64,000 bases of DNA from an uncultured Bacteroidota bacterium (GCA_903844815.1 CAIMVD010000200.1:28110-92109); one strand, 5' to 3'; counted from the first letter of the stretch, positions 538 through 36,637 are shown. Translations and numbers: made by a program. The notes: generated from the sequence alone by a model not told the origin.

Positions 538-3234
538 TTATTTCTTATTCAATTCAAGTTCATAACTCCCCGCCAACAAATGGAACGACCCATCCGGTTT
601 GCCGTTAAGCGTTATAGATTCAGGTGCTCCTTGTAATACTGCCTTTTTTAAATTATATCCAACCGGAAGGAACAGATCGGCTGTTGAATTAGCCGGAACA
701 GTAACCGAATAGGTAACACTCTTTTTATTTCTTGTCCACGTTGAAACGATTTCTCCGTAAGGCGAAGTGTGTTTCGCAGATGCTGAGGTCAACCCTTCAA
801 CAAAGTAAGGCCTGAGAATAATATTTTTAAACCCGGGATTCTCCTGATCGGGCTTTATTCCTCCCAGCGCCTTGTAAAACCATGCCCCCGGTTCGCCAAA
901 CATAATGTGATTCAGTGAAATATCGCTCTTGGCGTCTATAGGCCAGTTTTCATATAATGTTGTAGCTCCGTTGACAATCCACCACCCCCATGAAGGAAAA
1001 GTCTCCTGCGACACAAGTTTATAGGCAAGATCAGCATATCCATTCTCGCTCAGGGCATTAAGTATGGCTTTAGAACCAAGCAATCCAACGTCGATGTGAT
1101 TATTGTCGGCAATCACCCTTTTTGCCAGGTTTTCAGCAACTCTCCCTTTCATGTCATCCGGAACCACACCCCAGAGAAGCGGGAAACTAAGCTCAGTTTG
1201 TACCCCTTTCCCATAGATAGCTGTGGTCTTGTCGAGGTATTTATCGTTGATCGCATGCCTGATCTTCGCAGAAAGTGCTGAATATTGAACATAATCATCT
1301 TCCTTTCCGAATAACTTTGCCGCTTTGGAAAGGATAGTGGCATCGGCAAAATAGAAAACAGAAGAGGTAAATTCAACAGGAGTTGTTGATTTGACAGGGA
1401 TCCAGTCGCCGAGCCCCCATGTTGTTAAACCCGAGGGACTAATAGAGGTTATGTAATCTACATATCGTTTAATATTGTCGTAAGTGTCCGAAAGAAGCCT
1501 TGAATCACCATAGAACAGGTAAATGTTCCAGGGAATAACAGCGATTGTGCTTGTCCAGTCAGGACCATTCGCCCAGTGGTAACCCCAGCCACTCGTAGGA
1601 ATAATGGCAGGAAGAACACCGTTCGGCTGTTGTTCATCGCGGTGATCGGCAAGCCATTTCTCATACACAGTAATCCCGTCGAAATTATAAAGAGCTAATT
1701 CAATAGCAATCTGTCCATCGCCTGTCCATCCGTTTTTTTCACGCTGCGGACAGTCGGTGGGATAGCCAAAGAGGTTAGAAAGGTAAGAGCTGTTTGTCGC
1801 TTTCCATAATTTATTTATAACCGGGTTTGATGTAACTATTTCACCAGCGGGAGGAACATCGCTGTGCATGAAAAATCCGGTCAGGTTTTCTGTTGTAAGG
1901 GTTACAGGCTTGCTGCTGACGACCTCTACATACTGGAATCCCTTATAATTGAATAAGGGCATAAAGGTTTCTTCTCCCCTGCCTCCTGCAATAAAAATAT
2001 CAGTCTGGAACGGGTCGAGGTTATCTGTGGGCCTGTAATGAACACTGATGTTCGAAATATCGACCCTTCCTTTGACATCAAGCCTTTCAGCATGTATGAG
2101 TCTGAAAACCGTTCCTGCCTCAGCCTTCACCCTGAACTGCGAAACGCCTGCAATGTTCCTGCCAAGATCAAAAACATTGATTGTATCGTTTATCTTCCTG
2201 ACACTTACAGCCGGGATTTTCTCAACATTCCTGATCGGATGCAGCTGTTGTGAAACAATATTGCCTGAAGGAGCCGAACGGTAAATAATGTCTTCCCATT
2301 TTGAATCATCGAAGCCGGGTGAATTCCATCCTGGCTGTTCGAGGCGGGCATCATAATGTTCTGCGGTATAAATACTATTGAAAACAACCGGTCCGGATGA
2401 TGTTTTCCAGCTTTTATCGGTAATTATAGTTTCGATGGATCCGTCTTCATAGGTTATCCTGAGATCCATGCAGAAGGCCGGCCTGTTGCGCCATGGAGCC
2501 TTGTCGAAAAACCATACAGCCATAGACTGGTGATTATACCATCCGTTTCCAAGAAGCACACCCGCAGCATTTCTTCCGTTCCTTACCTGCGAAGTGACAT
2601 CATAGGAGACGTAGAGGGTGCGTCTGTCGAAACGAGTGTACATCGGATCGAGCCTGTGATTCCCGACTTTCTCCCCGTTAAGGTAGAGTTCGTAGAGACC
2701 ACCGGCAGCTATATAGGCCCGGGCTGATTTTATCTTCCTTTTTACCTCAAATTCCTTTCTGAAATAAGGCGCTTCTTTAACCTGGATTCCATTATCGTCA
2801 CTTATCCATGAACCTTTCCAGTTTCCCATTCCCATCATCCCCGTTTCAAACGACGAAACAGCGGCTGGTGATTTATTACCGTCCTTATCCCAAACCGCAA
2901 CACTCCAGAAGTACCTGGTGAATCCTTTAAGAGGTTTGCCTTTGTATGTAACCAGCATTTGGTCAGAAACTACTTTTTCTGAATCCCAGATATCAGCTTT
3001 CCCTGAAGACAGAGCTGAGGAATCGGTACTTATCATGATCCGGTAAGCCTGTTGATTTGCACCAAACCTGCTGTCGTCAATCATCCACGACAACCGGGGT
3101 ATGGCATCGACCCCTACCGGTTTTACAAGGTATTCGCACCTCAGATTAACCGGAAGGCATGATTGATTCTGGCAAATGGCAAGCGAAAGGTTACTGACGA
3201 GCAGTACCAGCAGAGCAAAAAGGCGTGCTTTCAT
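538..3234 (-). CDS. alpha-L-rhamnosidase, GH78, secreted
   Basis: It carries the GH78-type motif YPTDCPQREKNGWTGD and has a typical length of about 900 aa. I moved the start to the internal ATG at 3234 (MKARLFALLVLLVSNLSLA), which gives a signal peptide. The upstream 36 codons overlap the neighbouring gene. Confidence 0.85.
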   Translation of the reverse strand: MKARLFALLVLLVSNLSLAICQNQSCLPVNLRCEYLVKPVGVDAIPRLSWMIDDSRFGANQQAYRIMISTDSSALSSGKADIWDSEKVVSDQMLVTYKGKPLKGFTRYFWSVAVWDKDGNKSPAAVSSFETGMMGMGNWKGSWISDDNGIQVKEAPYFRKEFEVKRKIKSARAYIAAGGLYELYLNGEKVGNHRLDPMYTRFDRRTLYVSYDVTSQVRNGRNAAGVLLGNGWYNHQSMAVWFFDKAPWRNRPAFCMDLRITYEDGSIETIITDKSWKTSSGPVVFNSIYTAEHYDARLEQPGWNSPGFDDSKWEDIIYRSAPSGNIVSQQLHPIRNVEKIPAVSVRKINDTINVFDLGRNIAGVSQFRVKAEAGTVFRLIHAERLDVKGRVDISNISVHYRPTDNLDPFQTDIFIAGGRGEETFMPLFNYKGFQYVEVVSSKPVTLTTENLTGFFMHSDVPPAGEIVTSNPVINKLWKATNSSYLSNLFGYPTDCPQREKNGWTGDGQIAIELALYNFDGITVYEKWLADHRDEQQPNGVLPAIIPTSGWGYHWANGPDWTSTIAVIPWNIYLFYGDSRLLSDTYDNIKRYVDYITSISPSGLTTWGLGDWIPVKSTTPVEFTSSVFYFADATILSKAAKLFGKEDDYVQYSALSAKIRHAINDKYLDKTTAIYGKGVQTELSFPLLWGVVPDDMKGRVAENLAKRVIADNNHIDVGLLGSKAILNALSENGYADLAYKLVSQETFPSWGWWIVNGATTLYENWPIDAKSDISLNHIMFGEPGAWFYKALGGIKPDQENPGFKNIILRPYFVEGLTSASAKHTSPYGEIVSTWTRNKKSVTYSVTVPANSTADLFLPVGYNLKKAVLQGAPESITLNGKPDGSFHLLAGSYELELNKK

Positions 3235-6878: not shown

Positions 6879-8465
6879 TCATTTCCTGTATTTCAACGCA
6901 CCGATATCAAAGACGGTATCTGTTGAAAGATCTGTTCCGGCGATGTCGGTAGCTCCGGGATCAATATTAATTAACTGTTCAAGATCCAATCCCCTGCCAA
7001 TTAGCGGAGAACCGGATTTCAGACTAAAAGCCATAAGGTCATCCTTATTTAGTTTTACGGTTCCGGAAGGCAAAAATCCTGAAGGATCAACAAGCCTTGG
7101 ATCAGCATAAAAACCGGCCATTCTTCCATCAAGCATTTCATTTGATGTAATGGCTGCCCATTCACCGAGATCCTTAAACCCTGCAATCGATCTGTCGCCT
7201 GAAAGATTAAAGTAACAGTTTCCCTGGAAAAGTTCGGAAACAAGTCTTGCTCCGGGGATCAGGAAGGCCTCTTTGAAAACAAAAATATTGCTGAAGAATC
7301 GGAATCCGGTAGCGTTGTTTTCGATCGTTAAGGAATATCCTCTTTGAGTTGAATTATAAAAGGTATTGTTATAAATATCACAATTACGCATTGTCATTTC
7401 AGGAGAACCGCGCCATATCGCAACGGATCCTCCGTTTAATGATCCGTCATTCAGACTGATACAATATCTTAAAGTATTATTCTCCCATGGTTTCCCGGCG
7501 CCGAATTCAAAGAGCCCGTATCCTCCTCCCTGATTGTTATACGACAAACAGTACTGAATAACCGAATTTGAAACCCCTCCATCAAGATCGAAGCCTCCAC
7601 CGTCCTTTGCCACCGGGTTCGTTTTATTATCGTGCGAAATGCAATACTGTATTTTGAAATCATTACAATCCCAAATCCAGATTCCTACCGGACCATTCCC
7701 GGTCCATTGCATATCCCAGCCATTGTTAAATGATTCACAGTACTCAATTACGCCCCGGTTCACAGATGAGGCAAGTATCCCGCTACCACTGTGATTATTC
7801 AGAACTGTCGGATCGCCCGGATTATTCTCAGTAAGGCAATATCCGATATAAATATCTTCATTGTCAAAATTCAGGGGATCGTACGCTGTGTTACCATCGA
7901 CTAGTATTCCTGCAAATCCGTTATCATGTGAATGTACATTGGTTATCTGAACATCATTGCATTTATAAACATGTAACCCTGAATGCTGAAATCCTGAAAT
8001 TTCGAGTCTGTCAATCCGGAGATGGTCTGAGCCGGCGATAAACACCCCATCGGTAATGTTTCCATCCTTCCTGCCAGCACCTGTTAGCATAAGATCTTCA
8101 ACATTGAAATAATCACAGGCATTTACTTCAATACCAGCTGATAAGCCTCCATCTATGGTTGCCTTTCCGGTACCAAACGATTTTATTGTAACTTCTTTCC
8201 CCTCGGTGCCTGAATCGAGCGAATCGAGCTTAATGGTTCCCGGGAATACAGAACCGCCTTCCAGGAATAAAGTATCACCCGGACTAAGGTCTAAAGTGTT
8301 AACTTTTGTGACAGTCTGCCATGGTTTCTCCTTTGTACCCGGGTTGACATCATTGCCTGAAGCGCTTAAATAGTAGCATCCTACCTGTACTTCCGGAGCA
8401 TTCTTGCAGCAGGTCAGTAAGAAAAAGATTCCAAAACAAATAACTAACAGAGCCTGGTTCTTCAT
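6879..8465 (-). CDS. lipoprotein with right-handed parallel beta-helix (pectate-lyase fold) repeats
   Basis: Lipobox FFLLTCC. Repeated short N/G/D-rich turns are typical of beta-helix coils (NGWDMQW, DGGGFDLDGG, SYNNQGGGYG). Confidence 0.6.
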   Translation of the reverse strand: MKNQALLVICFGIFFLLTCCKNAPEVQVGCYYLSASGNDVNPGTKEKPWQTVTKVNTLDLSPGDTLFLEGGSVFPGTIKLDSLDSGTEGKEVTIKSFGTGKATIDGGLSAGIEVNACDYFNVEDLMLTGAGRKDGNITDGVFIAGSDHLRIDRLEISGFQHSGLHVYKCNDVQITNVHSHDNGFAGILVDGNTAYDPLNFDNEDIYIGYCLTENNPGDPTVLNNHSGSGILASSVNRGVIEYCESFNNGWDMQWTGNGPVGIWIWDCNDFKIQYCISHDNKTNPVAKDGGGFDLDGGVSNSVIQYCLSYNNQGGGYGLFEFGAGKPWENNTLRYCISLNDGSLNGGSVAIWRGSPEMTMRNCDIYNNTFYNSTQRGYSLTIENNATGFRFFSNIFVFKEAFLIPGARLVSELFQGNCYFNLSGDRSIAGFKDLGEWAAITSNEMLDGRMAGFYADPRLVDPSGFLPSGTVKLNKDDLMAFSLKSGSPLIGRGLDLEQLINIDPGATDIAGTDLSTDTVFDIGALKYRK

Positions 8466-26930: not shown

Positions 26931-27161
26931 AATAATTTCTTTTGATAATGAAGATCAGAATTTGTAATTTCTTTTTTATAAATCAGGTAAAATAATCGTT
27001 TCAGAAAGCCAACAGATTTTCAAAAACTTAATGTTTTTACCAAACAAATCTATAAAAAAAAAACTTAAAGTGTACTATATACATTTAAAATATTCTGAAA
27101 TATTACAAGAAGAAAGATAACCGGATTATAGTGCTGATTAAGAGTGTAAAAGCAATTTGGA

Positions 27162-27971
27162 TTATTGCCATTCATTCAGCGAAGACTGAATGAAATCAAT
27201 AATTTTCTGATTTTCGCTCTTCCCGTTGCCTTTAACAAAAAATGGTTCCCCGAATTTAAAATGAATGTGTTTACTGACATCGATGGGTCCCAGTTCCTTT
27301 ATTATCTTTCCATTCCCCCAGAAATCTGTTTTCAGCGCGACCGGAACAACTTTCACCCCTGCCTTCCTTGCAAGCTTAACTCCAAGTGAATTAAACTCCT
27401 CAGGCTTAAATTCAACGCTTCGGGTACTCTGAGGGAAGATAATTATGGAGATCCCTTTTGACAATAATTCCATTCCTTTTGTCATAACAGTCTCAAAATC
27501 CTTTCTGGGGTCGATACGGCCTACCACAATCGGATTCCGTGAAAGCATGACATCTTTAAAAAGCGGATGCCTGACAAGGCTGTCCTTTACAACAAATGTG
27601 GTCTCCCGGTAAGGACTGACAATACATGGCAGTACCATGGTTTCGAGGGTGCTCATGTGATTGCCGATAAAAAGCAAGGGTCCTTCCGGACTGATCATGT
27701 TCTCCATACCTGTGATATGGAATTTTCCGCCGGCAGACTCTATAAAACTTAAGATCTCAAAAGATGAATCGATCCAGGCCTGCGTATCGTATTTCTTTTT
27801 TATAGCCTGTTTCCGCGTTCCTAAAACAACTTTTGCATACCTGATGGAAAAGTAGAGACGGTTGTTGTGAATAACTTTGTCCCACAACGAAAGGTGTTCT
27901 TTTTCAGGAGTATTATAATCGAATGAATCAAAATAGCTTTTGTACATAGACAGGGATTTATACATTGTCAT
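27162..27971 (-). CDS. lysophospholipid (1-acyl-sn-glycerol-3-phosphate-type) acyltransferase family protein
   Basis: Acyltransferase motifs NHMSTLE (HX4D/E) and IIFPQSTRS (FPEGTR-like). Confidence 0.65.
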   Translation of the reverse strand: MTMYKSLSMYKSYFDSFDYNTPEKEHLSLWDKVIHNNRLYFSIRYAKVVLGTRKQAIKKKYDTQAWIDSSFEILSFIESAGGKFHITGMENMISPEGPLLFIGNHMSTLETMVLPCIVSPYRETTFVVKDSLVRHPLFKDVMLSRNPIVVGRIDPRKDFETVMTKGMELLSKGISIIIFPQSTRSVEFKPEEFNSLGVKLARKAGVKVVPVALKTDFWGNGKIIKELGPIDVSKHIHFKFGEPFFVKGNGKSENQKIIDFIQSSLNEWQ

Positions 27972-28140
27972 CCGAAATAATAATGACTACACAAAGTTAA
28001 TTCATTTCTGACAATCAAAAAATTATCATATTTCTGAAGTATGACGGATTAAAAACTCATTTTCTTTTAAAACCTTTCGCTCTTAATAAATTTGCTTAAT
28101 TTGTATCCATTGATTCAATACTAATATTAATTTTTGCAAA

Positions 28141-28185
28141 ACCTTCATGCCCTTTGTAATACCTTCGAGTCCTTTGTGTTTAATA
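28141..28185. repeat. Half-copy (left arm only) of the CCTTTGTG-type element
   Basis: accttcatg|ccctttgta|ataccttcgag|tcctttgtg|tttaa aligns unit for unit with the left arm at 424-467 (one indel, few substitutions). No right arm follows. It ends 14 nt before the ATG at 28199. Confidence 0.7.
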
Positions 28186-28198
28186 ATATCAAAATCAA

Positions 28199-29269
28199 AT
28201 GAAGAATCCACTTTTATTTTTTTGCCTGATAGTGGCAATAAATCTTTCGGCATACGCCTCTGAACCCTTTAAAGGAGAAAAATGCATTGTAAAATCTGAA
28301 TTCATTTACAATAAGGAAGATGTACCATTTCCAAGCTGCCATGCATCGACTATAATTGAAAAACATGATGGTCTTATTGCCGCCTGGTTCGGAGGCACCG
28401 AAGAGAAGGATCCTGATGTCGGAATCTGGACAAGCCATTATTCCGATGGCAAATGGACGAAACCTGCTGAGGTAGCAAACGGCATCCAGCACAAATCGAA
28501 AAGATACCCTTGCTGGAACCCTGTCCTTTATAACGCTGGTAATGAAATACTTTTGTTTTACAAGACAGGACCCTCTCCGTCAACATGGTGGGGAGAACTA
28601 ATCAGATCGTCTGATGAGGGAAAAACATGGTCACGTTCATCCCGCCTGCCGGAAGATATTTATGGTCCGGTCAAGAATAAGCCAATTCTTCTTAAAAACA
28701 ATATATTGCTATGCCCGTCGAGCACGGAAGATCAGGGTTGGAGGGTTCACATGGAGTTCACTTCCGACAATGGCAGTACATGGGAACGTACACCTGCACT
28801 TAATGACAGGAAAACAGGAGTTATCCAGCCGACCATACTTCAACTTCCGAACGGAAGATTGCAGATGCTTTGCAGGAGCACTACCTCATACATAATGAAC
28901 TCATATTCTGACGATAACGGGCATACATGGACTGAACTCACATCGTCCGGAGTGCCAAACCCAAATTCAGGTATTGACGCAGTGACGCTTAAGGACGGAC
29001 GTCATCTTTTAATATATAATCATATCTCAAAGGGCAGGAATGTGCTGAATGTTGCTGTTTCGGGCGACGGAGTTGAATGGAAAGCCGCGGCACTTCCCGA
29101 GAATGAGCCAAAGGGAGGTGAATTTTCATATCCTGCCATTATCCAGACAAGTGACGGACTGGTTCACATAACCTATACCTGGAACAGGAAACTCATAAAA
29201 CACTTAATTATCGACCCGAACAGCATTGAGGCTAAACCATTTATTAATGGCGGCTGGCCTGAAAAATGA
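28199..29269 (+). CDS. secreted BNR/Asp-box beta-propeller, sialidase (GH33)-like
   Basis: Three Asp-box motifs (SSDEGKTWS, TSDNGSTWE, SDDNGHTWT). Signal peptide present. Confidence 0.7.
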   Translation: MKNPLLFFCLIVAINLSAYASEPFKGEKCIVKSEFIYNKEDVPFPSCHASTIIEKHDGLIAAWFGGTEEKDPDVGIWTSHYSDGKWTKPAEVANGIQHKSKRYPCWNPVLYNAGNEILLFYKTGPSPSTWWGELIRSSDEGKTWSRSSRLPEDIYGPVKNKPILLKNNILLCPSSTEDQGWRVHMEFTSDNGSTWERTPALNDRKTGVIQPTILQLPNGRLQMLCRSTTSYIMNSYSDDNGHTWTELTSSGVPNPNSGIDAVTLKDGRHLLIYNHISKGRNVLNVAVSGDGVEWKAAALPENEPKGGEFSYPAIIQTSDGLVHITYTWNRKLIKHLIIDPNSIEAKPFINGGWPEK

Positions 29270-29827
29270 TTAATACTGATTAATTAAAAAATCCTTGTTC
29301 GTCTCATAGAGTTTTATGCTCTCCATGACAATATCCCAGGCTTTTTCTTTTCCAAGAAACTGTTCAACCGTTACATTTTTGTGCTCGAGCTTTTTATAAT
29401 CTTCAAAGAATCGCTTAAGCTCAATAAGGTAATGAGGAGGAAGTTCTGATATGTCGTTTATATAATTTATCGACATATCGTGAGCTGCCACGGCAATTAT
29501 CTTATCGTCCCTTTCATCTTCATCTATCATTTCCATGACACCGATAACCTTTGCTTCGATGAGACACCTCGGAAATACGTCAATGGAACAGATTACAAGT
29601 ATGTCAAGCGGGTCTTTGTCATCACAGTAGGTTTGAGGAATAAAACCATAATTGGCCGGGTAATGAACCGAAGAGAACAAAACACGGTCGAGCCTCAGAA
29701 GACCCGAGGCCTTATCAAGCTCATATTTGCCCTTGGAACCTTTTGGTATTTCAATAATCCCATTAACATACTGGGGTAGATTATTTCCTGAAACAATGCT
29801 GTGCCAGGGGTGCCTGTTATCTTTCAT
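29270..29827 (-). CDS. ppa: inorganic pyrophosphatase, family I
   Basis: Motifs [18 protein letters not shown] and [11 protein letters not shown]. Length 185 aa. Confidence 0.9.
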
Positions 29828-29881
29828 ATTATAAATATTTTATACGAATATCGGCATAATAATTATCAAAATGACACATCA

Positions 29882-31135
29882 TCATTTGCTGAAAAATGGG
29901 ATTATGAGCAGGGCAACGGACAGACCTGTAAGTACTGCGACAGCCCCCCATCCTATTATATTCTGGTAGAGCTTATTAACATATACTCCCATAATCTTCT
30001 TGCTGTTAATAAGCAGGATCATGCTTACAAGTACTACCGGTAGCAGTATCCCATTGAGAACCTGCGACCAGACGGAAATCTTGATAAGGGGCGCATTAGG
30101 AATAAGTATAATGATAGCGGAGATTACAAGAATCCCTGTATAGAGGGTATAAAATTCCTTTGCCTCATCCCATTTTTTATCAATGCCGGCTTCAAAACCG
30201 AAGGCTTCGGAGACATAAAATGCTGTTGCAAGGGGCAGAATGGTAGCTGAAAAAACCGAAGCAACGAAAAGCCCGAATGCAAATACCTGCGATGCAAGCT
30301 TGCCGGCAAGTGGTTTAAGTGAAAGTGCCGCATCCTTTGCCTCATTTATCACAATACCATTCGGATGAAGGGTTGAGCCGCATGCCACCATAATGAAAAA
30401 GGCCACAACCACTGTAACCACACAACCCACTGCAATATCTATCATTGTATACCTGAAGTTTTTCATTTTCAGACCTTTTTCAATAACAGTCGATTGCATA
30501 TAAAATTGCATCCAGGGGGCTATGGTCGTACCTATGAGAGCTATAATCATGGCCAGGCTGTTAGTATTAACCTCGAACTCGGGATGTATAACCGCATGGC
30601 CTATCTCACCCCACTGGGGACCGCTCATAAGTGCTGAAACGACATATGCAAGAAGTGATAAACTGAATATCAGAAATATTCGCTCGGCAATCTTATATGT
30701 TCCTTTTACAACCAGCAACCATACTAATATTGCCGCTATTGGTACTGAAATATACTTGCTTATTCCAAAGATCTCAAGGCTTCCTGCAACTCCTGCAAAT
30801 TCAGTTGTAGTATTCCCTATATTAGAAAGCAATAATCCGACAAAAATAAAAAATGTGATTTTCATGCCGGCATTTTCACGAATCAGATCAGAGAGGCCCT
30901 TGCCTGTAACGATTCCCATCCTTGCATTCATCTCCTGAACGACCATGAGCACAATAAATGAAGGAATGAGGGTCCAGATCAGGTTATAACCGTACATGGC
31001 ACCTGCAACCGAGTATGTTGTTATACCACCGGCATCATTATCTACACTGCCAGTAATAATTCCGGGACCAAGAATCGCAAAGAAGATAGCAAGTTGTCTT
31101 ATGAAATTTGATTCCCTGATTTTTGTCTTTATCAT
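29882..31135 (-). CDS. NRAMP/SLC11-related transporter with Mg-type (NRMT-like) site substitutions
   Basis: The TM1 motif reads GPGIITGSVDNDAGG, so DAGG replaces the canonical DPGN. The TM6 motif reads GTTIAPWM, so Ala replaces the canonical Met of xIMPHN. Confidence 0.7.
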   Translation of the reverse strand: MIKTKIRESNFIRQLAIFFAILGPGIITGSVDNDAGGITTYSVAGAMYGYNLIWTLIPSFIVLMVVQEMNARMGIVTGKGLSDLIRENAGMKITFFIFVGLLLSNIGNTTTEFAGVAGSLEIFGISKYISVPIAAILVWLLVVKGTYKIAERIFLIFSLSLLAYVVSALMSGPQWGEIGHAVIHPEFEVNTNSLAMIIALIGTTIAPWMQFYMQSTVIEKGLKMKNFRYTMIDIAVGCVVTVVVAFFIMVACGSTLHPNGIVINEAKDAALSLKPLAGKLASQVFAFGLFVASVFSATILPLATAFYVSEAFGFEAGIDKKWDEAKEFYTLYTGILVISAIIILIPNAPLIKISVWSQVLNGILLPVVLVSMILLINSKKIMGVYVNKLYQNIIGWGAVAVLTGLSVALLIIPFFSK

Positions 31136-31147
31136 TTCTGCTTACAG

Positions 31148-32422
31148 TTATCTTTTCTTTGTTCTTCTCTTATTTATAAGATCCTCGACAACATCATCGA
31201 CAACGACCATTCCCTGGAGCTGGTTGTTATTATCAACTACAGGGACGGCGAGGAGATTATATTTTGAGATCAGTTCTGCAATATCATCAACTTTCTGGTC
31301 ATCATACAGGAAAACCGGATCCGATTTCATTATCTGGTTAACTGTCGTTTCGGGCTGGGCAACAACAAGGTCGCGCAGGTTAAATGTTCCAATAAGTTCA
31401 TCATTCGACTCAGTAACGAACATATTATACAGTTCGGCTGACTCCGGTTTTTTCTGACGAAGCTCTTCTATCACCTCCTGAACTGAGATCCCGGGACGGA
31501 AAGACAGAATATCGGTTGTCATAAGGCTACCGACTGAATTATCGGGATATTCAAGCAGTTCTCTTACTTCCTGAGAAGACTCCCTGTCCATCTCCTTCAG
31601 AAGTAATTCTGCCTTTTCATCTTCAAGTTCATCGAGGATATCTGCCACTTCGTCGGCAGGCATTTTCTCAAGAACATCGGCCGCTTTATTAACAGGCAGG
31701 TTTTCAACAATATGCACCTGGGTCTCAATTTCAAGTTCCTCAAGAACATCGGCTGCTTTTTCCTCATCGAGAGCGGAGAAGACCGACATGCTTGACTTCT
31801 TTCCCAGGTCTTCGAGAATATCAGCAAGGTCAGAAGGGTGAAGAGTATGCAGCTTGGCATAACTCTTGGAGAGCCTTATGTTGAGATTTGAATAGTCGAT
31901 AGCCTGAACATCATCCCACAGAATGAACTTTGCGGGGATATTCACCTTGAACAGGGAGAGAATTTTCTTCATTGGAACCGAAATTCCTATACGCCGCAGA
32001 AGGCCTTCAATACCTATGTCAACAGCTATGGCGAAAGTACCGGCGGGCAATGTTGCAAGGCGCACATCATTAACCCTCACAAGTTTACGGCCATTAAGGT
32101 CAACTATCTGCTTGTCGAGGATATTTTCAACCAGGAACAATCCGTTATCAACCTCCTCCCGGCTCAATTCCTTCAATCCGGTACATGTTACATTGAGAAC
32201 CTCCCGGGTCTTTACTACCCTGAAGGTGTTAAATGAAAATATTTTTGCTTCCTTCTTGATCTTAAGCTTAACGCCGGTTATAAGCTGCTGCGATGGGTCA
32301 TTAGCCCCTGAAGGAACAGCATTTACGAGCAGATCCTTGATAATTCCGATATCATCACCATCAGCGCCAAAAGCTACCCGACCGATAATACCGCCTAAAT
32401 AAAATGTTGTTAGTGAAGTCAT
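31148..32422 (-). CDS. soluble PRC-barrel + MgtE N-domain + tandem CBS protein (MgtE cytosolic module without a membrane domain)
   Basis: MgtE_N-like acidic helices (LHPSDLADILEDL...AADVLEKMPADEVADILDEL) are followed by two CBS motifs. The protein stops right after them. It lies 12 bp upstream of the transporter. The start is set to the ATG at 32422, two codons inside the GTG in the ORF track. Confidence 0.75.
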   Translation of the reverse strand: MTSLTTFYLGGIIGRVAFGADGDDIGIIKDLLVNAVPSGANDPSQQLITGVKLKIKKEAKIFSFNTFRVVKTREVLNVTCTGLKELSREEVDNGLFLVENILDKQIVDLNGRKLVRVNDVRLATLPAGTFAIAVDIGIEGLLRRIGISVPMKKILSLFKVNIPAKFILWDDVQAIDYSNLNIRLSKSYAKLHTLHPSDLADILEDLGKKSSMSVFSALDEEKAADVLEELEIETQVHIVENLPVNKAADVLEKMPADEVADILDELEDEKAELLLKEMDRESSQEVRELLEYPDNSVGSLMTTDILSFRPGISVQEVIEELRQKKPESAELYNMFVTESNDELIGTFNLRDLVVAQPETTVNQIMKSDPVFLYDDQKVDDIAELISKYNLLAVPVVDNNNQLQGMVVVDDVVEDLINKRRTKKR

Positions 32423-32424
32423 TG

Positions 32425-32460
32425 TCACCTCCTTACTGTTTCTGATACAGGAGGAAGTGA
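32425..32460 (-). promoter_or_regulatory. Leader hairpin pairing UCACUUCCU with AGGAGGUGA immediately 5' of the start codon
   Basis: The minus-strand RNA reads ...ucacuuccu ccuguaucagaaacagua aggagguga ca AUG. It forms nine contiguous pairs (one G-U), plus a CUG/CAG extension in the loop. Confidence 0.5.
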
Positions 32461-32551
32461 CCGAAAATTCCGGCAGCCCTGCTGGATCAGTATTTAAATT
32501 AATCTATTCGCCGGATCATCATCCATTCAGTTCCCAAGTTTGATTAGGCCA

Positions 32552-32583
32552 CAAAAGTAAATTTCCTATCAATACATTCCAAA
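32552..32583 (-). promoter_or_regulatory. Candidate Bacteroidota sigma-A promoter (TTTG - 20 nt - TACTTTTG)
   Basis: On the minus strand, TTTG (32583-32580) is followed 20 nt later by TACTTTTG (32559-32552). This matches the TTTG/TAnnTTTG consensus and predicts a leader of about 115 nt. Confidence 0.45.
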
Positions 32584-32740
32584 TAAAACTCCACATTTCA
32601 GTCCCTGTACAAACGGATTTACTTACCAGCAGTCATTTAGAGATAAATATTGAATTAATAACATATAGGTAAATGTGCTTATTTTACTATTTTTTTAAGA
32701 TCAAAAAGAGATGAAGTAGGTCATTATGTTCTTTTTTTTC

Positions 32741-32748
32741 TATTTTTG
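32741..32748 (+). promoter_or_regulatory. Candidate -7 box TATTTTTG upstream of the spt-like gene
   Basis: TAnnTTTG match 33 nt upstream of the GTG start. No clear -33 TTTG. Confidence 0.3.
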
Positions 32749-32771
32749 ACGTCAATTCTATCAATTATTAA

Positions 32772-33965
<1,194 letters not shown>

Positions 33966-33992
33966 ATCAGCTTCTCTTAAAACATAAATAAA

Positions 33993-34083
33993 TTGTTACA
34001 CAGAGGTCCACTGAGGACCAAAGAGTTACACTGAGTTTGTTACCTCCGTGTAACTCTTTAAACTCTGTGCAACTCCGTGTTAA
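33993..34083. repeat. Word-periodic inverted repeat, CACAGAG/CACTGAG type
   Basis: ttgttacacagagg tccactgagg accaaagagttacactgag is followed by a tttg loop and then ttacctccgtgtaactcttt aaactctgtg caactccgtgttaa. The inner stem agagttacac/gtgtaactct is perfect. It ends 13 nt before the next ATG. Confidence 0.8.
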
Positions 34084-34095
34084 AAAAATCGCAGA

Positions 34096-34905
34096 ATGAA
34101 GAAAATTATTCTCATTACCGGTATTTCCTCGGGTTTTGGAAAACAAACTGCAAGGCTTCTGGCAGAGCAGGGCCACACAGTTTATGGCACGGTAAGAAGC
34201 GATATTGCCAAAGAGGATAAGGTCACTTATCTCAGAATGGACCTGACAGATTATGATTCAATCCGGAATGCTGTTTCATCTGTTGTTGAAAAAGAGGGAC
34301 GAATTGATCTCCTTATAAATAACGCCGGTATGCATACGGGAGGTCCTGTTGAGACATTTCCGGTTGAGAACATAAAACTTCAGATGGATACCAATTTCCT
34401 TGGCATGGTTCATGTTACAAGGGAAGTTTTGCCACTGATGCGAAAACAGGGAGGCGGAACTATAATAAACTTCAGTTCAATAGGCGGTTTAATGGGTCTC
34501 CCGTTTCAGTCATTCTATTCTGCCGGCAAATTTGCCATCGAAGGCTTCAGCGAAGCCCTCAGGATGGAAGTAAAAAAGTTCAATATAAAAATAGTTGTTA
34601 TCAATCCCGGAGATTTCCACACAAGCAACTCGGCCAACCGGAGGAATTTCCTTGCACCTGCAACGGATGGAGATGCTTATTACGAGCAATTCAAATCATC
34701 AATGGCGGTCATCGAAAAGGATGAAAGCAACGGTTGGGAGCCTGAAGTATTAGCACGGAAAATTGTAAAAATCACGGGGCTCAAAAATCCGCAAAACAGG
34801 TATATAATCGCCTCTTTTGAACAGAAACTTGCAGTGGTTTTAAAGTATTTGCTTCCCGCCAAGATCTTCGCCATGATACTGGAGGACCATTATAAAATAA
34901 AATAG
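34096..34905 (+). CDS. short-chain dehydrogenase/reductase
   Basis: TGISSGFGK (TGxxxGxG) and YSAGK (YxxxK) motifs. Confidence 0.85.
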   Translation: MKKIILITGISSGFGKQTARLLAEQGHTVYGTVRSDIAKEDKVTYLRMDLTDYDSIRNAVSSVVEKEGRIDLLINNAGMHTGGPVETFPVENIKLQMDTNFLGMVHVTREVLPLMRKQGGGTIINFSSIGGLMGLPFQSFYSAGKFAIEGFSEALRMEVKKFNIKIVVINPGDFHTSNSANRRNFLAPATDGDAYYEQFKSSMAVIEKDESNGWEPEVLARKIVKITGLKNPQNRYIIASFEQKLAVVLKYLLPAKIFAMILEDHYKIK

Positions 34906-35038
34906 TACTCTTATGCATTGCCAGGCATATAGGTTTGCCATGGATGAATTACTCCTTATCAACATATTTATATCAATGTATGTATAAATTTGTTACGCAA
35001 TAATAAGTACTTTCGGCAATTCGTTTCCTCTGTTAAGC

Positions 35039-35069
35039 TTTGTTATTTTAATAGTCATAGCTAATTTTG
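35039..35069 (+). promoter_or_regulatory. Candidate promoter TTTG - 19 nt - TAATTTTG
   Basis: TTTG at 35039-35042 and TAATTTTG at 35062-35069, 63 nt upstream of the ATG at 35132. Confidence 0.4.
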
Positions 35070-35131
35070 AGGCTTATTTAATAAATCCGTACCATCTTCT
35101 TAAATAAATAACAGAACTATCTGTTACAGAA

Positions 35132-36637
35132 ATGACTGAACTTGAACAATATTTCGAAAGGTATCGAAAGAATATTATTGGTATTGATACAGTAATTGAA
35201 ACCCCCTTCGGATTGAAGAAGCTTGTATACGCTGACTGGATAGCAAGCGGAAGGCTCTATGCCCCTATTGAAAAAAGGATGATCGATGATATCGGCCCCC
35301 TGGTTGGAAATACTCATTCCGAATCGACGGCTACAGGAAAAGCCATGACAGAGGCTTACCATTATGCACAGAAGATTGTAAAAAAACATGTAAATGCAGG
35401 GGAGGACGACATCCTTATTTTTACAGGAACAGGGATGACAGCTGCTATTGCCAAGCTCCAGAGAATAATGGGACTCAAAGTACCGGAACAGGCAATTAAA
35501 TATTGTTCACTGGCAACCTTCGGGATCAGGCAATGTAAGGATAGCTTTAATAAAAACCGTCCAGTTGTCTTCCTTACCCATACCGAACATCATTCAAACC
35601 ACACATCGTGGTTCGAAACACTTGCTGATGTAGTTGTCCTGGAACCGGATCAGGATCTTACTGTTAATCCCGATGCGCTGAGAAGGGAGATAGTTAAATA
35701 CAGCGACAGACCTCTTCTTATCGGATCATTCACGGCATGTTCCAATGTTACAGGTTATACTCCTCCCTACTATGAACTTGCCAGAATAATGCATGAGCAT
35801 AATGGCTACTGCTTTGTTGATTTTGCCGCTTCGGCACCCTATTTGAAAATGGATATGCATCCTGCAGAGAAGATGGAACAACTTGACGGCATCTTCTTTT
35901 CACCTCATAAATTTCTGGGCGGGCCCGGAAGTCCGGGGGTACTCATATTCAATAAGGAATTATACAAAAACGAGATACCCGACAAACCGGGCGGAGGTAC
36001 TGTTAAATGGACAAACAGATGGGGCGGATACAGCTATATTTCAGATATTGAAACCAAAGAGGATGGAGGAACTCCGGGTTTCCTGCAAGGAATCAGGGCA
36101 GCTCTGGCAATCATCCTTAAGGAAAACATGGACGTTGAAAAGATAAGGCTTAGGGAAAAGGAACTTTCGGATCTTACTTTCACCGAACTGCTGAAAACAG
36201 ACAAACTACATATTCTGGCTGGCGGTATTAAGGAGAGGCTCGGCGTATTCTCTTTCTATATCGACAATATACATCATAACCTCATTACAAGGATCCTTAA
36301 CGACAGGTTTGGTATTCAGGTCAGGGGAGGATGTTCATGCGCCGGTACTTACGGACATTTTCTTCTTAATGTCAGTTTCAGTGTATCAAAAGAGATTACT
36401 GACAGAATTGATTCGGGAGACCTTTCAATGAAACCAGGCTGGATAAGGCTTTCGCTGCATCCAACAATGACAAACGAGGAGCTTCTTTTTATTACCGATG
36501 CTATAAGACAGACAATCTGTAATATAGATGATTGGGAAAAAGATTATTCTTATGATATCAGTACCAATGAATTCATCCACCGTGACGAACACTTATTAAA
36601 ATCTCAGGGACCTGCAAAATGGTTTTGTGTGGACTGA
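35132..36637 (+). CDS. aminotransferase class V-fold PLP-dependent enzyme (cysteine desulfurase-like)
   Basis: The FFSPHKFLGGPGSPG segment holds the PLP-lysine context, and HTEHHSN is present. Length 501 aa. Confidence 0.6.
   Translation: MTELEQYFERYRKNIIGIDTVIETPFGLKKLVYADWIASGRLYAPIEKRMIDDIGPLVGNTHSESTATGKAMTEAYHYAQKIVKKHVNAGEDDILIFTGTGMTAAIAKLQRIMGLKVPEQAIKYCSLATFGIRQCKDSFNKNRPVVFLTHTEHHSNHTSWFETLADVVVLEPDQDLTVNPDALRREIVKYSDRPLLIGSFTACSNVTGYTPPYYELARIMHEHNGYCFVDFAASAPYLKMDMHPAEKMEQLDGIFFSPHKFLGGPGSPGVLIFNKELYKNEIPDKPGGGTVKWTNRWGGYSYISDIETKEDGGTPGFLQGIRAALAIILKENMDVEKIRLREKELSDLTFTELLKTDKLHILAGGIKERLGVFSFYIDNIHHNLITRILNDRFGIQVRGGCSCAGTYGHFLLNVSFSVSKEITDRIDSGDLSMKPGWIRLSLHPTMTNEELLFITDAIRQTICNIDDWEKDYSYDISTNEFIHRDEHLLKSQGPAKWFCVD

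Follow-up and report, generated by a model that had tools for sequence, protein, structure and literature searches.

A Bacteroidota copy of the NrmT-sensor gene pair and its conserved leader, a candidate Mg2+-uptake module

The DNA analysed here, referred to as the window, is a stretch of 64,000 nucleotides (nt) from an uncultured Bacteroidota bacterium (GCA_903844815.1, CAIMVD010000200.1:28110-92109). At 29882-32422 on its minus strand lie a gene for a soluble sensor-like protein and a gene for a transporter of the NRAMP fold. We found that this locus represents in Bacteroidota a two-gene unit that has been published before, and that the pair is preceded by a conserved leader containing a short upstream open reading frame (uORF) and two alternative helices. 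The leader is the part that looks new, and it lies outside the region covered by a preliminary description of this DNA. Our preferred reading, to which we give a probability of roughly 0.55, is that the two genes form a co-translated Mg2+-uptake module in which an NrmT transporter would be gated in trans by a detached MgtE-type sensor, with expression under the control of a uORF-based leader switch. The features of the two genes are as follows (aa, amino acids; TM, transmembrane helix).

31148..32422 (-), soluble sensor-like protein of 424 aa: PRC1, PRC2, MgtE_N, CBS, CBS and a basic tail
32147..32422 (-), PRC-barrel-like half 1, residues 1-92, the least conserved part of the sensor
31847..32146 (-), PRC-barrel-like half 2, residues 93-192, with the motif LDKQIVDLNGRKLVRVNDV...VDIGIEGLLRRIG; PRC profile positions 3-45 match residues 95-137
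31538..31843 (-), MgtE_N, residues 194-295 (Pfam E 2e-26)
31178..31531 (-), CBS pair, residues 298-415 (Pfam E 2.5e-19)
31151-31177 (-), basic tail INKRRTKKR, 9 residues directly C-terminal to the CBS pair
31136..31147 (-), 12-nt spacer from the sensor stop to the transporter ATG
29882..31135 (-), NRMT-clade transporter of the NRAMP fold, 417 aa (Pfam Nramp)
31025..31036 (-), TM1 metal-site motif D34-A-G-G37 (EleNRMT D55...G58)
30512..30529 (-), TM6 metal-site motif T203-T-I-A206-P-W208 (EleNRMT T224...A227, W229)

The sensor start was assigned to the ATG at 32422 because 118 of the 120 best homologues are 424 aa long and start at that ATG; a GTG at 32428 is open too. The spacer at 31136-31147 confirms the 12 bp that the preliminary description had counted between the two genes. 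The names of the closest homologues point to a Bacteroidales/Bacteroidia bacterium as the source.

The transporter matches Pfam Nramp (PF01566) over profile positions 1-356 of 357 (E 3.3e-96). When it was searched against all PDB sequences, the best match was EleNRMT (7QIA; E 5e-110, 371.6 bits), to which residues 10-413 align gap-free with 43.6% identity over 404 positions, whereas canonical MntH, DMT and NRAMP structures scored at most 89 bits (E about 1e-24 to 3e-24 for MntH). The NCBIfam scores also stayed under the cut-offs, with 144 vs 430 for MntH and 60 vs 272 for nramp. These alignments place the transporter in the NRMT clade and not among the canonical Mn/Fe NRAMPs, as had been proposed earlier from two motifs, DAGG in place of DPGN in TM1 and IAPW in place of IMPH in TM6. 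Both motifs are present where they had been described, DAGG within GPGIITGSVDNDAGG at residues 34-37 and IAPW at residues 205-208.

The metal site was compared with that of EleNRMT (PDB 7QIA/7QIC/7QJI/7QJJ; Ramanadane et al. 2022, PMC8806188) using a constant numbering offset of 21. D34, G37, E112, T203, A206, W208 and Q358 correspond to EleNRMT D55, G58, E133, T224, A227, W229 and Q379, and every ion-site residue named in the EleNRMT paper is kept. G37 replaces the NRAMP Asn, T203 replaces the NRAMP Ala, and A206 replaces the soft-ligand Met. In TM6b the first His is replaced by Trp (W208) as in EleNRMT, and at the second His position the transporter has Met where EleNRMT has Asn; neither position is protonatable in the transporter, and E112 is kept as in EleNRMT. 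EleNRMT, which comes from Actinomycetota and not from Bacteroidota, carries Mg2+ and Mn2+ but not Ca2+, shows no H+ coupling and loses detectable Mg2+ transport in the T224A variant (PMC8806188). The transporter would thus be an NRMT-type and probably H+-uncoupled Mg2+ importer, and it probably carries Mn2+ as well. Mg2+ specificity cannot be read from NRMT clade membership alone, because the NrmT of Acidobacterium capsulatum acted mainly as a Mn2+ importer.

The soluble partner is a four-domain protein rather than a small MgtE fragment. It had been described as a PRC-barrel-like N-terminus followed by MgtE_N and two CBS domains, and the latter three are found by Pfam; the PRC assignment stays below the cut-off in the window sensor and holds at the level of the family. 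In the window sensor, PF05239 scored 17.5 bits against a cut-off of 21.2 (E 0.004), with matches at residues 6-34 and 95-137. Among diverse partners, 56 of 61 N-terminal regions matched PF05239 at E up to 0.01 (best 1e-11), and a profile of these regions searched against the PDB retrieved PRC-barrel proteins only, at marginal E values of 0.007-0.9. The N-terminal ~190 aa of the sensor seem to consist of two tandem PRC-like halves. The length of this region is 174-204 aa in all 71 full-length partners from genome loci, and full-length partners carry both the PRC region and the MgtE_N/CBS region. PRC half 2 is the most strongly conserved part of the partner across phyla: 18 of its columns are at least 90% conserved, compared to 11 in MgtE_N, 9 in the CBS pair and 3 in PRC half 1. 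Residues D103, Q105, R116, N118, D119, D135, G140, R143 and R144 of this half are invariant, and its family motif is LDKQIVDxxGxKVVRVND...VDxGxxGLLRRxG.

The remainder of the sensor resembles the cytosolic domain of Thermus thermophilus MgtE (TtMgtE; 2YVY, 2YVX, 2ZY9). Sensor residues 191-415 align to TtMgtE residues 25-252 (2YVY chain positions 28-255) with E 1.6e-34; the numbering offset was verified on seven isoleucines, and the list of Mg2+ ligands was taken from Maruyama et al. 2018 (PMC5882242). TtMgtE E59, D91, D95, D247 and D250 correspond to sensor D225, D257, D261, D410 and E413, and the window sensor thereby keeps five of the six MgtE cytosolic ligands, namely those of Mg4 (D91, D247), Mg6 (D95) and Mg7 (E59) and one of the two of Mg5 (D250). 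Four of them are strongly conserved among 72 diverse partners. The E59 position is D/E in 58 of the 72, the D91 position is D in 62, the D95 position is D in 70, the D247 position is D in 66 and the D250 position is D/E in 50. In MgtE, the sites Mg4, Mg5 and Mg7 lie between MgtE_N and the CBS domains and drive domain closure and channel closing (PMC5882242).

The architecture differs from that of TtMgtE. TtMgtE is a fused channel with a plug helix and a five-helix pore, whereas the sensor is a separate soluble protein encoded beside the gene of a LeuT-fold carrier; in addition, the sensor has the tandem PRC-barrel N-terminus that TtMgtE lacks. Judged by sequence, the sensor is not an MgtE channel, because it ends 9 residues past the second CBS domain (CBS2) and matches TIGR00400 only in part and below the cut-off (profile positions 21-252 of 450, score 162 vs 232.75). 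The preliminary description had placed this end exactly at the start of the MgtE pore. The pore is indeed absent, but the end falls earlier, at the equivalent of TtMgtE residue 255, and the plug helix is missing as well; its position is taken by the short basic tail. Across the partner family the tail is 4-25 residues long and mostly Lys/Arg-rich. An acidic C-terminal tail, [FY]PE[VMIF][KRE] plus 2-5 mostly acidic residues, was seen in place of the usual one in partners from Ignavibacteriota, some Bacteroidota and Coatesbacteria (loci L030, L031, L033, L034, L036, L038 and L056 of the genome scan given below).

The distribution of the pair was determined by scanning one genome per species with a 15-sequence alignment of diverse NRMTs, which gave 80 loci (denoted L with a number) from Bacteroidota, Ignavibacteriota, Omnitrophota, Bacillota, Spirochaetota, Nitrospirota, Acidobacteriota, deltaproteobacterial lineages, Planctomycetota, Chloroflexota and three archaeal groups. 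Two loci end at a contig edge, which leaves 78 evaluable genomes, and the partner was located by an iterative profile search of all open reading frames (ORFs) in the 80 loci. The partner gene is adjacent in 75 of the 78, in Bacteroidota, Ignavibacteriota, Omnitrophota, Bacillota, Nitrospirota, Acidobacteriota, deltaproteobacterial lineages and archaea. Of these 75 loci, 72 have the partner immediately before the transporter gene on the same strand, and three (L066, L067, L080) have it downstream; in L061 it is 882 bp upstream on the opposite strand, and in L053 and L062 this profile search found no partner. The median gap between sensor and transporter is 8 nt, and 17 of 67 junctions overlap. 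In an Eggerthellaceae relative whose transporter is 92% identical to EleNRMT, a PRC/MgtE_N/CBS gene ends 3 nt before the transporter start. These results show that synteny is conserved and that the pairing is real and ancient, since adjacency holds in 75 of 78 genomes from many bacterial phyla and archaea. A 576-aa ORF in L067 was considered as a fusion of the two proteins and rejected as an over-extended GC-rich ORF; the true partner there is convergent and downstream. Archaeal metagenome-assembled genomes of Methanocellaceae, Nanoarchaeota and Methanobacteriaceae also contain the full pair (L043, L063 and L079, with gaps of -4, 1 and 9 nt).

Both the pairing and the idea of feedback in trans, which had been suggested for this locus, were already published by Shin et al. 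2014 (PLoS Genet 10:e1004429, PMC4072509), who named NrmT, reported its pairing with an MgtE-like gene and proposed cytoplasmic feedback regulation, with a metal-chaperone role as the alternative. The NrmT operons of that study (Clostridium acetobutylicum Ca_c0685 and Ca_c3329, and A. capsulatum) share with the window locus the two-gene build, the MgtE-like gene in first position and the proposed role. The clostridial operons have an M-box, and the Ca_c0685 partner is split into two genes, whereas the locus described here has a uORF leader and no M-box, and its partner is one 424-aa protein with a tandem PRC-barrel N-terminus of ~190 aa. The PRC region is not mentioned in the text of Shin et al. 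2014 (PMC4072509). Regulation of the transporter by the sensor in trans is a reasonable hypothesis, and an already published one.

An Mg2+ role of the pair is also suggested by its regulatory context in Bacillota. Of the 8 Bacillota loci searched, 7 have an M-box (ykoK, RF00380; 103-151 bits) immediately before the partner gene, and the transporters of these seven loci are 54-71% identical to that of the window. RF00380 gave no match in window 27000-35500 at E up to 1, and the M-box was not found in 14 Bacteroidota loci or in 13 loci of other phyla, including one from Eggerthellaceae. Taken together, these sequence data back an Mg2+ role of the pair, because the M-box precedes the orthologous Bacillota operons and the MgtE cytosolic Mg2+ ligands are largely kept.

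In Bacteroidota, a different leader precedes the sensor gene. An alignment of Bacteroidota upstream regions revealed a conserved leader of ~135 nt, located in the window at 32424-32559 (-), with the following elements (SD, Shine-Dalgarno).

32552..32559 (-), presumed promoter -7 box TACTTTTG (TAnnTTTG) in the conserved block TTTACTTTTG, 33 nt upstream of the uORF ATG
32494..32526 (-), leader uORF, MDDDPANRLI (10 codons + stop); family consensus M-D-(D/E)-x-P-A
32477..32490 (-), element X, CUGAUCCAGCAGGG, pairs with Y; proposed anti-sequestor
32442..32461 (-), element Y, GUCACUUCCUCCUGUAUCAG, anti-SD; partner of X or Z
32424..32439 (-), element Z, AAGGAGGUGAC, SD-like; masked by Y in the minimum-free-energy fold; its end is 2 nt short of the sensor ATG

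The leader is present upstream of the sensor gene in 20 genome loci (the window, L001-L004, L006-L014, L016, L020, L022, L025, L026 and L057) and is specific to a Bacteroidota subclade. It has no match to any Rfam family, the enterobacterial Mg_sensor included. The window and 14 of 19 leader-bearing genome loci have TAnnTTTG, the Bacteroidetes-type promoter -7 consensus, at a distance of 31-38 nt upstream of the uORF ATG. As in the M-box loci, the leader stands upstream of the sensor-NRMT operon; compared to the M-box it is shorter, is without an Rfam match and contains a uORF.

Elements X and Z compete for Y, whose nucleotides are shared between the two helices (32442-32455 pair with X and 32447-32461 with Z). 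RNAduplex gave a possible helix of Y with X, and an alternative one with Z, in each of the 20 genome leaders. Compensatory changes were found, such as CACG/CGUG in L016, UGGUUUCAGGAG/CUCCUGAAAUCA in L020, and GUCAC/GUGAC versus GCCACC/GGUGGC beside the SD. In an alignment-free test with 85 leaders less than 80% identical in Y, the X:Y duplex had a mean energy of -18.2 kcal/mol in cognate combinations compared to -13.2 in non-cognate ones (Wilcoxon p 9e-14), and the Y:Z duplex had -14.7 compared to -12.3 (p 7e-9). Covariation was also tested on a structure-blind MAFFT alignment of 57 leaders, with the caveats that the sequences are related and that the structure was derived from one aligned sequence. 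X:Y was paired in 80.5% of cells, compared to 40-47% when the partner was slid, and had 45 double-change cells against 25.9 +/- 6.0 after shuffling, a value that none of 500 shuffles reached. Y:Z was paired in 75.5% of cells compared to 43-55% when slid, with 44 double-change cells against 28.8 +/- 3.9. RNAalifold returned no pairs on a MAFFT alignment of 20 leaders, which we ascribe to misalignment. These results show covariation support for X:Y and Y:Z as mutually exclusive structures that share Y.

An SD-like motif precedes 2 of 42 crudely called window genes, and the sensor gene alone has a full AGGAGG. Since SD motifs are rare in the window, it is more plausible that Z belongs to a switch than that it is an ordinary ribosome-binding site. 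The scarcity of SD motifs in the window is as expected for Bacteroidota, and the strong, conserved AAGGAGGUG before the sensor gene stands out from it.

In 109 unique leaders, the uORF starts with M-D-(D/E)-x-P-A and has 9-24 codons. Residue 2 is D in 108 leaders, residue 3 is D/E in all 109, residue 5 is P in 107 and residue 6 is A in 104. All 109 share the ATG, which has A at -1 in 86 of them. In 92% of leaders the uORF stop falls within X or at most 15 nt upstream of it, most commonly 4-6 nt inside X, and in the window it is 4 nt upstream of X. A direct helix between uORF codons 4-6 and X, which would give a pairing of the trp 1:2 type, was rejected (cognate -9.8 vs non-cognate -9.8, p 0.73).

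A pattern scan of metagenome contigs gave at least 120 loci with this leader, of which 101 have a readable downstream ORF. Among the matches listed, 93 of these 101 ORFs encode the partner protein, and four others code for CorA (PF01544, E 1e-49 to 1e-54), in one case with an N-terminal MgtE_N. A covariance model built from the leaders, which does not require the pattern, found three further copies, all directly upstream of CorA genes. Two of them (L014 3326-3422 (-) and L094 2244-2340 (-)) form back-to-back leaders, with CorA divergent from the sensor-NRMT operon, and the third (L004 6326-6421 (+)) lies with its CorA gene just downstream of the NRMT gene. Overall, at least seven leaders precede CorA (L014, L094, L004, L104, L119, L131 and L178). 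Weak covariance-model matches at window 7032-7132 (E 0.63), at L013 5948-6055 and in L039, as well as the GC-rich metagenome pattern matches L138, L146 and L195, were taken as chance. Mg2+ importers of two unrelated families are served by a single leader type, since copies of it precede both sensor-NRMT operons and CorA genes. The M-box regulon, which extends over several unrelated Mg2+ transporter families, was identified by a like argument of one leader before unrelated transporter families.

The nearest functional parallels are the mgtL and corL leaders of Salmonella and E. coli. According to PMC11552253, which summarises Gall et al. 2016 and Chadani et al. 2017, mgtL and corL are acidic and Pro-rich uORFs that are translated poorly at low Mg2+ and well at high Mg2+, and mgtA and corA are repressed when this translation is efficient. 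The likeness consists in a short acidic/Pro uORF upstream of Mg2+ transporter genes and in two mutually exclusive structures; the enterobacterial output is Rho-dependent termination, whereas here it is apparently sequestration of the ribosome-binding region. The leader shares no sequence similarity with mgtL/corL, occurs in another phylum and has no terminator-like U tract after the Y:Z hairpin. It is at most an analogue of mgtL/corL and not a member of the group. We know of no Mg2+ leader in Bacteroidota, and none was found in the literature searched, which comprised open-access papers and bioRxiv.

The uORF interpretation has a serious, if doubtful, competitor, in which the leader RNA would itself sense Mg2+ or another ligand, as a riboswitch does, or would be bound by a protein or small RNA, and the apparent uORF would be no more than conserved RNA. 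Pairing is possible between the conserved block AUGGACGAnnnnCCnGCG and a GCCGG further downstream, and CC[G]GC occurs together with CCGG in 32 of 46 leaders compared to 16 of 56 (p 5.5e-5), although this correlation is weak. In addition, AT-rich sequence may well contain open frames of 9-24 codons, and X itself has stop triplets in two frames. Coding is nevertheless suggested by 20 leaders that were found through the protein, without use of the motif, and in which codons 2, 3 and 5 vary at third positions only. The invariance of the ATG and the frequent A at -1 point the same way, as does the resemblance of M-D-D/E-x-P to the acidic and Pro-rich logic of mgtL (PMC11552253). Moreover, the X-Y intervening segment is variable in length and sequence, and the candidate helix between uORF and X is without covariation, which argues against a structured RNA sensor.

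For a module of NrmT and a trans-acting MgtE-type sensor, we propose the following mechanism. At high cytosolic Mg2+, ions would bridge MgtE_N and CBS through the MgtE-equivalent acidic residues and clamp the sensor in a compact form, which would bind the transporter from the cytoplasmic side and keep it inactive; when Mg2+ drops, the clamp would open and transport would resume. The docking element would most likely be the tandem PRC barrels, above all PRC half 2, and perhaps the basic tail too; the PRC barrels would take the part of the plug helix and pore, which in MgtE belong to the same chain. In the leader, X and Y could pair first during transcription, which would leave the start region open. 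A ribosome that reaches the uORF stop in or beside X would melt X:Y, and Y would then pair with Z and close the start region. By analogy with mgtL/corL, ribosomes would reach X only at sufficient Mg2+; low Mg2+ would hamper translation of M-D-D-x-P-A, X would stay on the anti-SD, and the ribosome-binding region of the sensor gene would remain open. In Bacillota, the place of this leader is taken by the M-box riboswitch.

Several observations weigh against this mechanism, in addition to the possibility of a direct RNA sensor. With the A. capsulatum NrmT, rescue of a Mn2+-transport mutant was complete, whereas rescue of a Mg2+ mutant required Mg2+ at millimolar concentrations (PMC4072509). When the A. 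capsulatum pair was co-expressed in Bacillus subtilis, growth was not further improved (PMC4072509); this is the sole experiment on a partner, and it also means that the pairing had been put to an experimental test in 2014, which the preliminary description was not aware of. NRMTs are active without the partner, as shown by complementation with Ca_c0685 and Ca_c3329 (PMC4072509) and by EleNRMT in liposomes (PMC8806188). The sixth MgtE ligand, D226, is replaced by Asn in the sensor and in 47 of 72 partners, and the loss of the plug helix removes the Mg2/Mg3 ligands E258 and D259. No sensor-transporter fusion occurs in the 80 loci or among the best 150 cluster representatives, and the comparison of cognate with non-cognate energies detected no covariation between the uORF region and X. 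Finally, an AlphaFold2 model of the sensor from a shallow alignment (81-97% identity) is of low confidence, with a mean predicted local distance difference test (pLDDT) score of 60.6 and pLDDT values of ~72-82 over residues 10-96.

CBS pairs commonly bind adenine nucleotides. An unlikely alternative is that the partner does not gate at all and is a buffer or chaperone that binds Mg2+ or nucleotides, or couples the energy state, through ATP or an adenine nucleotide on CBS, to another target, and is co-expressed with the transporter for shared Mg2+ homeostasis. The metal-chaperone role raised by Shin et al. and the lack of effect in the single co-expression test (PMC4072509) are consistent with this alternative, and so is ATP binding by the MgtE CBS domain (PMC5529423). 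However, the near-universal adjacency and the overlapping or 0-20-nt junctions across phyla and domains are typical of fixed-ratio subunits, and the most conserved segment of the partner is a PRC barrel, which has no known role in binding ions or nucleotides. Our search of open-access papers and bioRxiv, in which a paper from a subscription journal could be missed, found no functional work on the partner after 2014, and no demonstration of a soluble protein binding or gating the transporter was found in the searched literature.

Import of Mn2+ or another transition metal that the partner would sense is quite improbable, for although the A. capsulatum complementation (PMC4072509), Mn2+ transport by EleNRMT (PMC8806188) and the lack of an M-box in the window all favour it, the transporter keeps T203 (EleNRMT T224, needed for detectable Mg2+ transport), an M-box precedes the Bacillota orthologues with their 54-71% identical transporters, the Bacteroidota leader is common to CorA genes, and the partner keeps the MgtE Mg2+ ligands.

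If the Mg2+-uptake module proposed here exists, a LeuT-fold carrier would be regulated in trans by an MgtE sensor, an unusual case in which channel and carrier share a regulatory module. In ~95% of sampled genomes, including the lineage of the only NRMT with a structure, the transporter comes with the partner, and biochemistry on the transporter alone may for this reason miss physiological regulation. The EleNRMT work was done on the transporter alone, and the partner is not mentioned in that paper (PMC8806188), in later SLC11 papers, or in a January 2026 preprint that presents EleNRMT as the only characterised member of the wider NRAMP family that moves Mn2+ without protons. The conserved PRC barrel offers a concrete hypothesis for a docking surface. 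The leader shared with CorA is a candidate for a new Mg2+-responsive regulatory element of Bacteroidota, and it would, if the reading is right, functionally replace the M-box in a phylum that otherwise hardly uses SD sequences. More tentatively, and with the odds leaning against it, Bacteroidota Mg2+ importers (sensor-NRMT and CorA) may be under an undescribed ribosome-based leader-peptide sensor that replaces the M-box, with the PRC/MgtE_N/CBS protein as a detachable gating subunit that docks through PRC half 2.

One of the leader-bearing CorA loci, L178, encodes at ~1161-2525 (+) a 454-aa protein in which MgtE_N (residues 30-113) is fused to a complete CorA domain (166-450). This occurrence of MgtE_N on a third transporter fold suggests that the module is portable between transporter folds. 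In three Syntrophales/Smithella loci, Rfam PyrR-binding-site matches (54.5-59.3 against a gathering score of 54) were found immediately upstream of the sensor gene on the opposite strand (L049 3410-3512, L051 3466-3570 and L058 3478-3580 (-)), where they presumably belong to a divergent pyr gene.

In the window, the pair is followed by a further gene, which gives three closely packed minus-strand genes: sensor 32422..31148, transporter 31135..29882 and pyrophosphatase 29827..29270. The last of these (29270-29827 (-)) encodes a family-I, Mg2+-dependent inorganic pyrophosphatase and lies 54 nt downstream of the transporter. It was considered as a third operon member and rejected: it is adjacent only in the closest relative (L001, gap of 10 nt) and 1.25 kb off in L005, and none was found in the other loci of the 80. 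The public names of both members of the pair are likely misleading, in that the soluble partner is called 'magnesium transporter' or 'magnesium transporter MgtE' without having a membrane domain, and NRMT homologues are annotated as 'Mn2+/Fe2+ NRAMP family transporter'.

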